From a virus, in UHGV virus genome UHGV-0259231: a stretch of DNA of 28,453 bases. The stretch is one strand, 5' to 3'. The position numbers and the translations under genes are program-made. Below, in pieces: positions 1 through 4,840 of the stretch. The notes under the pieces were generated by a model that saw nothing but the letters and a program-made list of their open reading frames with translations, made no database searches and was not told the origin of the DNA. The first letter of the stretch is position 1. Each line of letters starts with the position of its first letter.

Positions 1-569
1 GTCGATCCCCTGACAAGGAAATGTGAACCATGGACATCAACGCGTCATAAATGTTTACGCAAGTGCACAATGCACCCTTTCCACTATCAACAAGGAGGAG
101 CAGAAACTGTGTAAATCGTACAATGGTAAGACTTATCAAAAATACAGGTTAATTTTGGTATTTAAACCTTTTTTACTTGTTAGTATGATACAAAGGCTTT
201 CAAAAAAGCTGGGAAATTCAACAACTCTTGGAAATTATGGACTTTGTCCCGCGGCTTTAATCTGACGGCCGCGTTCCTTTTTTGACTCAATTATTGACCC
301 CTTCTCTACGCAACTTCAGTTCCCACCACCAACTTTGCGGCAGTTTCATAGGATGAATGTCTAAAAGAATAATGGTGACCGATAAGAAAACGACTGAATA
401 ACTGCACATTTTCGCTCGAAAGCTTCCTGTCAGATCCATAGCGGATCAAGTGCTGAATGTCACAGTATCGAACAGAAAACAGTGACGATCTAACCCTTCA
501 AGAATATTCTACGATTGTTCTGTTTAGGAAAAGCAAGGCGGGAAGTCAGGAGATAAGTCATTGATAAAG

Positions 570-631
570 TGGCGGAGAGAGGGGGATTTGAACCCCCGGT
601 AGAGTTGCCCCTACTCCGGTTTTCGAGACCG
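570..631 (-). other. attR core: 3'-terminal 62 nt of a tRNA-Ser(CGA) gene (serU-like), lacking the 5' half
   Basis: Minus-strand reading gives CGGTCTCGAAAACCGGAGTAGGGGCAACTCTACCGGGGGTTCAAATCCCCCTCTCTCCGCCA: anticodon loop with CGA, long class-II variable arm, T-arm and CCA end. The sequence expected for the D-arm and 5' acceptor is absent after position 631. Confidence 0.7.
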
Positions 632-847
632 ATGATACAGAGTCGAAAAATCAAAGAGTTAAAAACTTTTCTTGGAATAAATGTCTTAAAATCGTACACG
701 AAAAATCAATAAATTACATAACATTAAAGAAGAATATTCCAAGCCTTCTTGAGGCCACCACCTGTTTTCAGGTGTCATTCAGACGTGATTTACCCCAGAT
801 TGGGTAAGCACGCTTTTTTTCTCAGCTTATTCCGTTTTGCCTGTGTG

Positions 848-875
848 TTGAATAATTCCACTGCAGTTATATAAA
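848..875 (+). promoter_or_regulatory. Candidate sigma70 promoter on the plus strand (TTGAAT, 16-bp spacer, TATAAA)
   Basis: Hexamers at 848-853 and 870-875. The region is AT-rich, so a chance match is possible. Confidence 0.2.
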
Positions 876-929
876 ATCGGTAACGGCTGGAAATCATTCA
901 ATACTCGCACTATCGAAAGTTAACCAGCC

Positions 930-970
930 AGCCGCAGTATCCTATCATGACAAGTTACTGCGGCTTTTTA
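930..970 (+). terminator. Plus-strand intrinsic terminator (10-bp stem AGCCGCAGTA/TACTGCGGCT, 16-nt loop, T-run)
   Basis: Perfect inverted repeat 930-939 / 956-965 followed by TTTTTACTTTTTATATTT on the plus strand. It is convergent with the minus-strand gene that ends at 981. Confidence 0.4.
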
Positions 971-980
971 CTTTTTATAT

Positions 981-1268
981 TTAACGGATCAACATCCAGA
1001 TCAGCAGACACGCCACCACCGGCACAGCAAAATCCATCAGGCTTGCCACATCCCACACGCGCGGATCAAAACCGCCCCACCACGGCATGTTAATCCTCTT
1101 GCCATGCCCAAACATTTCAATCCAGCGATATTCTGCCTGGGTGTGTTCACGCGCAATGAAGAACGTACAACCGGCTATCGCCCCGTAAGCCCAGTTCCCG
1201 GTAAAAAGACCAATCAGTAGCTGCGCAGCCACAGCACAAAGCGCATGAAGGAAAGGTGTTATATCCAT
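981..1268 (-). CDS. Small hydrophobic (multi-pass membrane) protein of unknown function, about 95 aa
   Basis: ORF with ATG at 1268 (alternative ATG at 1274; the ORF-track start at 1283 is TTG). An AGGA Shine-Dalgarno lies about 6 nt upstream. The translation has two to three hydrophobic stretches. Confidence 0.5.
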   Translation of the reverse strand: MDITPFLHALCAVAAQLLIGLFTGNWAYGAIAGCTFFIAREHTQAEYRWIEMFGHGKRINMPWWGGFDPRVWDVASLMDFAVPVVACLLIWMLIR

Positions 1269-1310: not shown

Positions 1311-2351
1311 TTATTTAGACGCAAGCGCCGCCTCAATTGCAGATAATCTTTGTCTTAATTCTGCGTTTTCTTCTTCCAGTGCTGTTATTCTGTCGTCTGA
1401 CTCTCTGGCTACCTGAACAAGCAAGCCAGTAACACCAGAATAATCTACTGTGTAATAACGTTCACCTTCTTCACCTTCCGATCCGCTTGCACCGTCCTGA
1501 TATTTCATTGCGGAACCTACAACTTCTGGGATTGCTTCCAGAGCTTCCTGTGCAATGACACCAGCATAGGGCATACCGTTTTCTTTAAGCGTGTATGTAT
1601 AGCCGTTCATTTTACGGATGCGGTCGGTTGCATTATCGATCACCTGAATGTTGTCTTTCAGATCCCGGTCGGAATGCTGGTTAAATGCGGTGGCATGACA
1701 TGCACCATTAACGCTTAACATATAGGTGTTATCGGTATTTTTCTGCGCATAGAACATATAAGCGCCACCATCAGCACCAACTTCATATACAACCGGACGG
1801 GTAGAGTTACCCCACAAACTAGTAGTAGCGCCAGAATGAGCGGTTCCCTGTGTGTTGATTGTCATGGTTGACCCATGATTGGCATATTTGATTTGTAATG
1901 TGTCTGTGCAGTCAAACTTAATAAGCGCGTTACTTCCCCGCACACCATACGACATGAGACAGTTCCCCATCTTAAGGTAACCATCACTGCCTGGAAAAAT
2001 TAATGTTCCACCGTAAAGATCGCTAAAATCCCAAAAGATACCTTTTGTTCCATTGTGTGTGACAATCCTTGTCATTGTATCTTTTGTACCGTCAATATTT
2101 TTTCTAGTGTACATCTCACTATAAGCGTTTTCGGTTTCTCCTGTCTTATTTGACAAGTGAATCTTACCGCTAAATATAGTTCCAGTGGTCGGCAATGTCT
2201 TTTGATCATAGATTACATTGCAATAACTATTCCATGTTGTTTTATTGTCTACATATGATTTTGTTGCGTAGCTTCCTTGATCGTTTTTTAATTTGCTAAC
2301 GTCGGATTTTAGCGTTTTGATGTCTTCAGGAATTACTGTCGATGTAGCCAT
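1311..2351 (-). CDS. Tail fibre / receptor-binding protein with C-terminal intramolecular chaperone (peptidase S74-type) domain
   Basis: The C-terminal 110 aa (SDRDLKDNIQVI ... GVIAQEALEAIPEVV ... YYTVDYSGVTGLLVQVARE ... coiled coil) fit the auto-cleaving chaperone domain of endosialidase/L-shaped tail fibres. The N-terminal 230 aa are Ser/Thr/Gly/Asn-rich and beta-rich, and the DNA is visibly AT-rich. GGAAG Shine-Dalgarno upstream. Confidence 0.6.
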   Translation of the reverse strand: MATSTVIPEDIKTLKSDVSKLKNDQGSYATKSYVDNKTTWNSYCNVIYDQKTLPTTGTIFSGKIHLSNKTGETENAYSEMYTRKNIDGTKDTMTRIVTHNGTKGIFWDFSDLYGGTLIFPGSDGYLKMGNCLMSYGVRGSNALIKFDCTDTLQIKYANHGSTMTINTQGTAHSGATTSLWGNSTRPVVYEVGADGGAYMFYAQKNTDNTYMLSVNGACHATAFNQHSDRDLKDNIQVIDNATDRIRKMNGYTYTLKENGMPYAGVIAQEALEAIPEVVGSAMKYQDGASGSEGEEGERYYTVDYSGVTGLLVQVARESDDRITALEEENAELRQRLSAIEAALASK

Positions 2352-2360
2352 TTTTCTTCC

Positions 2361-2642
2361 TCACATCCAGCCACGAAGTTGATGCTCAACAGCAACCACG
2401 TATTCATCGAATATTGACGATTTTTTTGCATCATTAATGATGCGCACGTTTACAAAATATCCGTCTTCCTTAACACATACCGGCTCGCCATCTTCGGTAA
2501 GTTCTCCGGTTTCTTTGTACACGTTACCTATCACGTCAATAAGAATATCATCCTGCATCGACTCGTCATCATAATAGCCGGCACTCTCCATAAAGGCCGA
2601 AAAGTCGGCCCTGTCGGCAAATTTGAGTGTTAAATCTTTCAT
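2361..2642 (-). CDS. Acidic 93-aa hypothetical protein, translationally coupled to stf (possible fibre assembly factor)
   Basis: Its ATG at 2642 shares one nucleotide with the Stf stop codon (TAATG), and it sits 9 nt upstream of the next fibre gene. No family recognised. Confidence 0.5.
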   Translation of the reverse strand: MKDLTLKFADRADFSAFMESAGYYDDESMQDDILIDVIGNVYKETGELTEDGEPVCVKEDGYFVNVRIINDAKKSSIFDEYVVAVEHQLRGWM

Positions 2643-4831
2643 TAGATTGACTCCCCCACCTGAGCATCAGTCAATGCCTTGTGCCATATTCTGAAATTCC
2701 TGACATGACCAAATAAATGACGCAACCCGGCTGTAGTCTGGCCTCCAATACGGATAATTGCGGTGTTCTGAATATAGGACCATGTGGCTTTCTTTTCGCT
2801 GGATATACGCCCGTTACTTACTGAGCACGTAGACTGATCTGACTTTACACGCATCCCCATAACCATTTTTTCAAGCGATGCGTTTTCGTTTACCCGTCTG
2901 TTAGCCAAACCTATATCGCAATAAGGAAATCCGTCGTAATCTGTTGAACGACCGAAGCCAAGAATAATAGCCGCTCCGGTTTGATGACCGCCGGTATCAA
3001 AAACACGCGGTGCTGCATTTGGCGTTTTATACCAGTTCTTATGTACCTCACAAAGAACTGTAAAAGGAAGATTATAAAGGTTATTCTTGATTGGGACTGT
3101 CACCATATCGCTTGCGCGAGTGCTTGCAATTATATCAGTTACAATAAATGACGAAGCACTTGATCCACCTTCCACTTGTGGAGTTGCGATATCCAGATAG
3201 TCTCCAGATGCTGTGCCTGAACCTTTTACTGGAGCATATTGAACCATCGCACCAATCATGCTCTCTGTATCTAGTGCATTAATTGTAGCCTGATAGAAAA
3301 TCCAACCAGTAGCCTCATCTTTTACAGCCTTTGCAATAATACGATTTGCTGCACCACCAGTCTTATCAATTACAAGTGTTGATAAATTGAGGTAAGCATC
3401 TCCCAAAAAAGTGTAAGTAGAACCATCATGATGTTCAAATCTTAAACGACACCTTATATTTTCAACATCACTTCTGACACGGCATGAAATGGTCACATAT
3501 TTTTCATCACCTGTGACATCAAATCCTTTACTGCCAGAAACCGTTACGATATTAATCGCACTTGTCTGATCAATAAGAGTATCTTTTACAGTAAATCTCC
3601 CATAAGTAAAATTAAAAGAATCCGTGGATATTTCTGTGAGTTCCAGATTGCCTGACTTATTCCATTTAGATGGATTTGTTGAATTAAGCAGAAGATTAGT
3701 TCTTTGCCCCTCAATAAGCAGGCCATCACGTTCAAATCGCGGCTCGTCAATGGCAGCCTCTGTCAGTACACCAGATTTATTAATATAGGTTGCTTTCGAT
3801 GCGCGTTTAAACTTAACAACCTTGTCACCAGGCATCGTTATTTCGTCGTCGCCAATAACAATCTTTTTATATGATGGCGAAAAGCCCGTAATCATATCCA
3901 GTGAATCGTTAAACGGTATCCACACATCGGGAAGCGGCTGCAAAACTTGTTTATACGGCTCCGCAGCCTGGCTTGCATACTCTCTGGCTGCGTCTTCACT
4001 TGCTTTTGCAGCCGTCTGGCTTGCAGCGGATGCTTTCGCCGAGTTAGCCGCCGCAGTCTCGCTCGCCTTTGCGTTGGTTTCACTGGTTTTTGCAGCTTTT
4101 TGACTGTTGGCTGATGCAGTGGCAGAAGAAGCCGCCGCACTTGCAGAACCAGCTGCGGCACTCTCGCTTTGGGCTGCAGCATCCTGACTGTTTTTCGCCG
4201 CAGTTTCACTGGCTTTGGCATTCGTTTCGCTGGTCTTCGCTGCCGTCTGGCTGGACTTTGCGTTGGTTTCGCTCGTCTTTGCGGCTGTCTCGCTGTTTTT
4301 CGCGTTGGTTTCTGATTTTTTGGCTGCTGTCGCGGAGTTTGCCGATGCAGTCTGTGAGGTCGCTGCCGCCTGTGCGCTGTTAGCTGCATTCGTTTCTGAG
4401 GTTTTCGCCGCGTTCTTCGATGATGCCGCTGCAGTTTCGGATTTCTTTGCCGCCGCTGCGCTCTGAGAGGCGGCTTCGGCGTTGCGTGCCGCTTCTTCCA
4501 CCATTGCCTCAAAACGACGCAATGCCTCCGGCATGACATCATCTTCCGTCATGGCACCGAGAAAATCATTCAGCGTACCTGGTCTGGAACCTTCATAGAC
4601 GGTAATGGTCCCGGCATGTGAAGGCGGAAAACCTTCAACCAGCAGGGTGACGCTGTACTGGCCATACTCAACATCCATGCTGTAACGTCCGGCTTCATCC
4701 GGATTTTCAGAAGCCACCGTGTTCACCAGTACCGTGGTGCTGTTACGCTTTGCCTTCAGTTGAATAGTGCAGTTCTGTATTGGTTTTCCCGCACCATCTT
4801 TCAGCACACCTGAGATTTTTACTGCTGCCAT
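2642..4831 (-). CDS. stf: Side tail fibre protein Stf (lambda-like N-terminus, Ala/Ser-rich repeats, distinct C-terminal receptor-binding domain)
   Basis: The N-terminal 110 aa (MAAVKISGVLKDGAGKPIQNCTIQLKAKRNSTT...) are near-identical to lambda Stf as remembered. A central AAKTSETNAK-type repeat region follows. The C-terminal 430 aa are unrelated to lambda and end in a ...RNFRIWHKALTDAQV motif resembling LamG/ConA-like jelly-roll domains. ATG at 4831 has a GGAG Shine-Dalgarno; the ORF-track start at 4837 is GTG. Confidence 0.8.
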   Translation of the reverse strand: MAAVKISGVLKDGAGKPIQNCTIQLKAKRNSTTVLVNTVASENPDEAGRYSMDVEYGQYSVTLLVEGFPPSHAGTITVYEGSRPGTLNDFLGAMTEDDVMPEALRRFEAMVEEAARNAEAASQSAAAAKKSETAAASSKNAAKTSETNAANSAQAAATSQTASANSATAAKKSETNAKNSETAAKTSETNAKSSQTAAKTSETNAKASETAAKNSQDAAAQSESAAAGSASAAASSATASANSQKAAKTSETNAKASETAAANSAKASAASQTAAKASEDAAREYASQAAEPYKQVLQPLPDVWIPFNDSLDMITGFSPSYKKIVIGDDEITMPGDKVVKFKRASKATYINKSGVLTEAAIDEPRFERDGLLIEGQRTNLLLNSTNPSKWNKSGNLELTEISTDSFNFTYGRFTVKDTLIDQTSAINIVTVSGSKGFDVTGDEKYVTISCRVRSDVENIRCRLRFEHHDGSTYTFLGDAYLNLSTLVIDKTGGAANRIIAKAVKDEATGWIFYQATINALDTESMIGAMVQYAPVKGSGTASGDYLDIATPQVEGGSSASSFIVTDIIASTRASDMVTVPIKNNLYNLPFTVLCEVHKNWYKTPNAAPRVFDTGGHQTGAAIILGFGRSTDYDGFPYCDIGLANRRVNENASLEKMVMGMRVKSDQSTCSVSNGRISSEKKATWSYIQNTAIIRIGGQTTAGLRHLFGHVRNFRIWHKALTDAQVGESI
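3982..4480 (-). repeat. Coding tandem repeat array (about 33-nt units encoding AAKTSETNAKxS motifs) inside stf
   Basis: Repeated GCnnnnAAAACCAGCGAAACnAAnGC-like units are visible on the coding strand. They generate the overlapping alternative-frame ORFs at 3822-4542. Confidence 0.7.
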
Positions 4832-4840
4832 ATCCACTCC

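Follow-up and report, generated by a model that had tools for sequence, protein, structure and literature searches.

A candidate terminator cassette at the convergent ends of lambdoid prophages in Escherichia coli

The window, by which we mean the whole stretch of 28,453 nucleotides analysed here (virus genome UHGV-0259231), carries at positions 871-970 one copy of a cassette of about 100 nt, which we defined by comparing about 80 distinct versions. On balance we lean towards reading this copy as an orphan plus-strand terminator or 3'-end cassette, located at a convergent lambdoid junction and parted from the dinI gene that usually precedes it. This reading draws on a T-run that is confined to the plus strand, on the position at the junction and on compensatory changes in homologues. 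The cassette has no earlier description and is an undescribed 3'-end element, and none of the records that we examined carries an annotation at its position. A sequence-only reading of the same DNA had proposed a promoter-like element followed by a strong terminator, acting as a small RNA or as an insulator. The terminator or insulator half of that proposal is partly supported by the evidence presented below; the view of the element as such missed that it is a widespread cassette, that it normally forms the 3' trailer of dinI and that a second terminator lies upstream of it. The features on which the argument turns are the following, in coordinates of the window.

569-630, minus strand: 3' fragment of a tRNA-Ser gene, a displaced att copy that marks the prophage end
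784-820, plus strand: T1, a canonical intrinsic terminator, with its stem-loop at 784-812 and seven T at 814-820
848-877, plus strand: sigma-70-like match, TTGAAT (-35, 848-853) with TATAAA or TAAAAT
871-929, plus strand: constant 5' half of the cassette, made of (A/G)TAAAATCGGTAAC, stem 1 and its loop
930-978, plus strand: variable 3' hairpin of the cassette (hairpin 2), with arms at 930-939 and 956-965, the loop at 940-955 and a T-rich tail at 965-978
981-1268, minus strand: convergent last gene of the tail-fibre end, a predicted membrane protein of 95 aa (phrog_1443), function unknown
1311-2351, minus strand: tail-fibre protein with a Peptidase_S74 domain
2642-4837, minus strand: Stf-like fibre of 731 aa

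The window starts immediately 3' of host yodB, as judged from the annotation of E. coli SMS-3-5, in which yodB lies upstream; the same genome (L001) matches positions 560-1320 perfectly. Within the spacer between yodB and serU, a plus-strand hairpin (CGCGGCT...GGCCGCG, followed by TTCCTTTTTT; 250-283) folds weakly better than shuffled sequence (z -1.5) and may be the yodB terminator. At the tRNA-Ser fragment, the Rfam covariance models returned partial tRNA/tmRNA-like matches (573-624) and ARAGORN found no complete tRNA. The sequence at 630-747 matches phage 'SerU-LTIIb' (H80) beside the tRNA-Ser of that phage, and a serU-type integrase module contributes its att arm at 630-827, with T1 at the end of the arm. 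T1 consists of an 11-bp stem, a 6-nt loop, one unpaired C and seven T, and a further hairpin lies upstream of it at 759-774. Being more canonical than the hairpin of the cassette, T1 contradicts the claim that the latter is the only convincing plus-strand signal here. T1 accompanies the same att arm even in a cassette-free prophage (L232), and in noe1104 (L230), which shows the phage-type order, a plus-strand int is followed by att, T1, the cassette and the convergent membrane-protein gene. T1 is probably the tI analogue of this phage's integrase gene, that is, the equivalent of lambda tI. On the other side of the cassette, convergence on a minus-strand gene ending at 981 was borne out, this being the phrog_1443 gene. 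Neither dinI nor an SOS box is present in the window. Two further observations concern the tail-fibre end and the far end of the window: the large tail-fibre gene, intact here, is split in SMS-3-5 by an IS3-family transposase (L001 6192-7420), which makes the window part of a genome related to, yet distinct from, that of SMS-3-5, and four tRNA genes (Gly-UCC, Thr-UGU, Lys-UUU, Met-CAU) are clustered on the minus strand at 25778-26087.

The cassette is composed of two halves with very different behaviour. Its left edge follows the consensus (G/A)TAAAATC(G/A)GTAAC and leads into stem 1, in which 6 bp (GGCTGG at 885-890 with CCAGCC at 924-929) enclose a nearly invariant loop of 33 nt (891-923). 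Hairpin 2 follows directly, its sequence differs among versions, and homology between versions stops at its foot. In the window, 880-975 folds into two adjacent hairpins (-28.1 kcal/mol, z -5.0). Of 5426 complete E. coli genomes, 5249 contain the module corresponding to 872-939 (median 2 places per genome), and so do 198 phage records, among them HK97, HK106, HK75, mEp460, phiP27 and many Stx phages. An exact 20-mer of the module, looked for in 185,579 species representatives, was found in Escherichia and Shigella only, apart from a few very short contigs which look like contaminants. The whole window returned no match in Rfam 15 at gathering thresholds, and nothing overlapped 848-970 at E <= 10 when positions 500-1400 were searched.

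The commonest upstream neighbour of the cassette is the 3' end of phage dinI, the cassette beginning 8 nt past the dinI stop codon. When loci were picked by DinI protein similarity alone, the cassette lay right after that stop in 74 of 80. Examples are mEp460 (int, dinI, cassette, convergent tail fibre), Sakai Sp17 (ssrA att, dinI, cassette) and Sakai Sp15 (att, dinI, cassette), in the last of which dinI (ECs_2939; L147 700-790) is preceded by a TTGACA-type promoter and a perfect SOS box, CTGTACATAACTACAG, just 5' of the ribosome-binding site. Given this box, dinI-linked copies of the cassette should be DNA-damage inducible. Contexts without dinI include a position after a P4-type integrase gene, the end of the Qin prophage of K-12 and several others, and also HK97, where the order is int, attP, the annotated sib and the cassette, facing tfa. 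In phiP27 the cassette lies 230-300 nt from attR. Whatever the context, the cassette was located a few hundred bases from att on the tail-fibre side in all cases examined, and the gene preceding it always read in the same direction as the cassette; in most phage contexts, it is met from the other side by convergent tail-fibre genes.

Two unannotated copies are carried by K-12 MG1655. One (304242-304309, minus strand; L236 / L004) sits behind a dinI pseudogene remnant in the spacer between ecpE and ykgJ, and the other (1632484-1632503 within about 1632470-1632570, plus strand; L235 4485-4504) about 200 nt inside the left boundary of Qin. The small-protein gene ynfT, which the Qin copy precedes by about 390 nt, does not overlap the cassette and was rejected as an explanation of it. 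The copy upstream of ykgJ, with the dinI remnant before it, is found in nearly all E. coli. Several phages carry the start of a ykgJ-like ORF (ATGAGCAATCTGAATC) downstream of their cassette (L097, L109, L106, L037 and L016; compare L004 3128), and the chromosomal block of dinI remnant, cassette and ykgJ therefore looks like an old prophage end. The gene ykgJ is also a reported target of RyhB; judged by eye, the pairing site is likely at the start codon, outside the cassette.

Turning to hairpin 2, the perfect 10-bp hairpin and T-run noted in the sequence-only reading are indeed there: arms AGCCGCAGTA (930-939) and TACTGCGGCT (956-965) form a stem holding 6 G-C pairs around a loop of 16 nt, and TTTTACTTTTTAT follows. 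The hairpin alone folds at -16.6 kcal/mol (z -4.67), and none of 200 shuffles folded as well. On the plus strand, five T at 965-969, the first of which is paired in the stem, are followed by AC and five more T, giving the G+C-rich stem and U-tract typical of intrinsic terminators; read on the minus strand, the hairpin leads into GGCTGGTTAAC, without a U-tract. The plus-strand loop, however, exceeds the usual range of about 3-8 nt, and for this reason the hairpin at 930-965 was not listed by the terminator consensus scan; the word 'strong' was thus too generous. Such a loop is atypically large for an efficient terminator, and this counts against the terminator reading, as does the fact that about half of the cassette versions are without a good T-run. 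Most homologous alleles of hairpin 2 have loops of 9-11 nt, and a T-rich tail 3' of the hairpin is present in 43 of 88 distinct versions, that of the window included. A further consideration against termination as its role is that, with T1 about 110 nt upstream, little plus-strand transcription may reach it. The minus-strand form of the window's allele is the more stable one (-21.4 vs -16.6 kcal/mol), and a comparison of G.U with A.C pairs across alleles favours neither strand as the selected RNA. Located 15 nt past the stop codon of the phrog_1443 gene, hairpin 2 may also serve the 3' end of that convergent mRNA. Coding potential offers no alternative: as had been said before, the ORF list shows no ORF inside 880-970, which disposes of a small ORF as the explanation, and a minus-strand ORF of 35 aa (790-897) was rejected because it extends into non-homologous sequence in other contexts.

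Patterns of variation point to selection on both halves. In hairpin 2, 8 of 13 aligned pairs show compensatory changes and 89.9% of cells are paired, a figure which drops to 26-55% once the partner columns are offset by 1-3 positions; double-change cells number 29, compared with 11.2 ± 3.0 in shuffles, and none of 500 shuffles reached 29. Stem 1 showed no covariation, being invariant and hence uninformative in this respect. Nucleotide diversity was computed on the sample selected by DinI protein rather than by the cassette. Values of pi were 0.104 at third and 0.007 at first and second codon positions of dinI, 0.018 in the 5' arm of stem 1 with the loop, and 0.28 in hairpin 2. Stem 1 and its loop hence vary about 5-fold less than the synonymous sites of dinI (Fisher test on variable sites against dinI third positions, p = 0.0095), a degree of conservation in the 5' half that a plain terminator leaves unexplained and that therefore counts against the terminator reading as well. 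The allele of hairpin 2 is more closely associated with the right-hand context than with the left-hand one (adjusted mutual information 0.45 vs 0.15). The window's own allele occurs with four left classes and a single right context, namely the membrane-protein gene phrog_1443, with which it is co-inherited. That the allele tracks its right-hand context suggests that the 3' hairpin belongs functionally with the convergent gene, and this linkage, taken together with the low diversity of the 5' half, points to the latter as a constant, constrained element at which left and right modules recombine.

We thus propose the following account of the cassette as a terminator. It lies between the integration end of the phage, consisting of int, attP and usually an SOS-controlled dinI that reads toward it, and the tail-fibre genes read in the opposite direction. 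Hairpin 2 and the T-run, we infer, would act as a Rho-independent terminator of plus-strand transcripts, which in most phages would be those of dinI; in the window they would be transcripts that pass T1 in the excised, circular genome, or host-side transcripts reading into the prophage. Termination at this point would keep plus-strand transcripts from running antisense into the tail-fibre genes. The allele of hairpin 2 is inherited with the right-hand gene and the constant 5' half would provide the shared sequence for recombination of left and right modules, while also being constrained in sequence, presumably as part of an RNA 3' trailer.

One rival explanation is that the window holds a stand-alone sRNA gene of about 90 nt, which would start at about 882-885 from TTGAAT-N18-TAAAAT and end with the hairpin and T-run at about 968-972. 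The prophage would express the RNA, whose invariant loop (891-923) would act in trans as a seed or as a platform for protein binding, and in dinI-linked copies the same RNA would be set free from the dinI mRNA's 3' end. We regard this as unlikely, albeit as a contender to be taken seriously. The architecture is suitable, with a 5' stem-loop whose single-stranded part is long and conserved, then a terminator hairpin and five U in a row, and an sRNA would explain the purifying selection on the 5' half (pi 0.018 vs 0.104). It is also favoured by the left edge: TAAAAT, a -10-like hexamer, forms the edge of the cassette, is present in 46 of 55 upstream versions and is where homology begins in at least eight unrelated upstream contexts. 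Its variants (TATAAT, TACAAT, TAGAAT) differ at position 3 alone, which is compatible, at the level of sequence, with a -10 element. The stretch of about 58 nt between TAAAAT and hairpin 2 is, like the hexamer, strongly conserved, and a bare terminator would need neither. The remainder of the promoter is much less convincing. The hexamers reported previously do exist (TTGAAT at 848-853 and TATAAA at 870-875, with a 16-nt spacer; alternatively TAAAAT at 872-877, with an 18-nt spacer), but 'near-consensus' overstates a 9/12 match with non-optimal spacing. The 4 kb scanned contain 13 matches of this quality, and shuffles give 9.0 ± 3.1, so that their number does not exceed chance; a 4/6 match to the -35 at that distance turns up at 12% of random positions in comparable sequence. 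The -35 falls in a segment of 44 nt (828-871) that is peculiar to the left arm of serU type; IMG/VR yielded 18 loci with this segment, every one of which shows that left arm followed by the cassette, and locus L017, considered as an independent context, is really a serU arm carrying an IS3 insertion. Within these 18 loci the arm is joined to at least six different right-hand alleles, across which -35 and -10 are retained, a point for the sRNA. Outside the serU class, however, the -35 is missing from every upstream context, never exceeding a 3/6 match and mostly showing 2/6, and in Sp15-type dinI copies a 1-nt deletion destroys the -10-like hexamer. The pattern that the sequence-only reading had named as telling against a promoter, with hairpin conserved and hexamers not, is therefore seen in homologues for the -35 and not for the strongly conserved TAAAAT. 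An sRNA is further disfavoured by the missing Rfam family and by the two MG1655 copies, at neither of which the reference annotation has an RNA gene in this most studied of transcriptomes.

The closest precedent for such an RNA is DinR, an Hfq-dependent sRNA that is cut by RNase E from the Klebsiella dinI mRNA's 3' end and represses ftsZ, with its seed within a Klebsiella-specific insert preceding the terminator (PMC10907235). The cassette, too, is an extra, lineage-specific sequence between the dinI stop and the terminator, a likeness of position. In line with this, the trailer of host K-12 dinI has a simple terminator only, without similarity to the cassette, which would make the latter an added 3'UTR insert, and the SOS box of phage dinI copies would render the trailer DNA-damage induced. 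Differences are that DinR starts inside the dinI coding region and that the window lacks both dinI and the SOS box, despite the dinI-trailer location of 74/80 DinI-selected loci. A DinR-like ftsZ target was rejected, complementarity of the loop to the start of E. coli ftsZ being at chance (-10.3 kcal/mol, compared with -10.9 ± 2.6 and -12.8 ± 2.7 in shuffles), and the best pairing of the loop within the 28-kb window was also inside the shuffle range. Other prophage RNAs fare no better. AgvB, AsxR, Esr41, STnc100/PasD, PasA-C, DicF and IpeX are likewise short non-coding elements with intrinsic terminators that hold conserved places in lambdoid prophages; prophage sRNAs lie at the PR' moron site or in the immunity region, whereas the cassette is at the att/tail-fibre end. 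AgvB, AsxR, Esr41 and STnc100 were dismissed for their other prophage positions and for want of a covariance-model match, and the published probes for PasA-D of EPEC (PMC8550237 table S6) are absent from the window, allowing up to 4 mismatches. EcsR2 (PMC4350180) is located in the neighbouring yagU-ykgJ spacer and not in the cassette. In the Sakai Hfq-CRAC data, EcOnc22-24 lie in tail genes, and EcOnc31 and EcOnc43 at the Sp5 end in a region without the cassette; the cassette is missing from the listed plus-strand Hfq peaks (PMC4104026). The only nearby peak listed is EcOnc47, antisense to Sp15 dinI at its 3' end and adjoining the cassette (L147 977-1023, minus strand; Tree et al. 2014, Table S2, gives Sakai 2896476-2896522, the position being uncertain given the older assembly), which suggests that minus-strand transcripts read through the Sp15 cassette. 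About as unlikely as the stand-alone sRNA is the wider proposition that the cassette represents an undescribed phage-borne family of regulatory RNA carried by almost every E. coli genome, mostly an SOS-induced dinI trailer and, in serU-type prophages, a sigma-70 stand-alone transcript, with the loop as seed in trans or as platform.

A third possibility is that the cassette has no function beyond serving as a relic or recombination linker, its constant half being a shared stretch at which the left (int, att, dinI) and right (tail-fibre) modules are exchanged; here, such an exchange would have removed dinI, and the promoter match would be a coincidence in AT-rich DNA. The window's hairpin allele with its four left classes, the serU arm with its six or more right alleles, the chance frequency of promoter-like matches and the lack of annotation in all records examined would agree with this. 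Mosaic lambdoid phages have conserved 'boundary' or linker sequences at module junctions, and the cassette resembles them as a short conserved stretch amid exchangeable modules, with crossovers evidently within it. However, neither compensatory changes nor variability below the synonymous level is expected of linkers. Even in dinI-linked copies, variability in the constant half is far below that of the synonymous sites nearby, hairpin 2 still pairs through 8 compensated positions, and the ykgJ-locus copy is kept in nearly all E. coli, all of which argue for selection rather than drift. We hence consider a pure recombination relic quite improbable, and less likely than either the terminator or the sRNA.

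Returning to the terminator reading, the known system with which the cassette is best compared is tI and sib of lambda and HK97. Like the cassette, these lie downstream of attP from int, face the tail-fibre or b-region end, are parted from int in the prophage and include a plus-strand hairpin with a T-run; for the cassette, the position downstream of attP relative to int is seen in L230 and likewise in HK97. The two are nonetheless distinct elements. The cassette is not homologous to sib of HK97, which has both, the cassette starting directly after the annotated T-run of sib, and lambda has sib and lacks the cassette. A tI-like role in the window is better filled by T1 than by the cassette, and no long duplex of RNase III type is evident.

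What these results mean depends on which reading holds. If the cassette is a terminator only, the gain would be a modest one: it gives a name to a landmark of E. coli prophage ends that is very common yet unannotated, and that marks the junction at which int/att and tail-fibre modules are exchanged. In K-12, the cassette accounts for the conserved non-coding block upstream of ykgJ and for the one at the end of Qin. If, on the other hand, the constant half proves to be a functional RNA, the gain would be larger: an unrecognised RNA would be carried by nearly all E. coli, in one to several copies of which most would be tied to the SOS response via phage dinI, and one could directly test whether DNA damage, prophage induction and post-transcriptional control are connected. 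Should the regulatory-RNA reading be true, a dinI trailer would have been recruited as a riboregulator for a second time, independently of DinR in Klebsiella.
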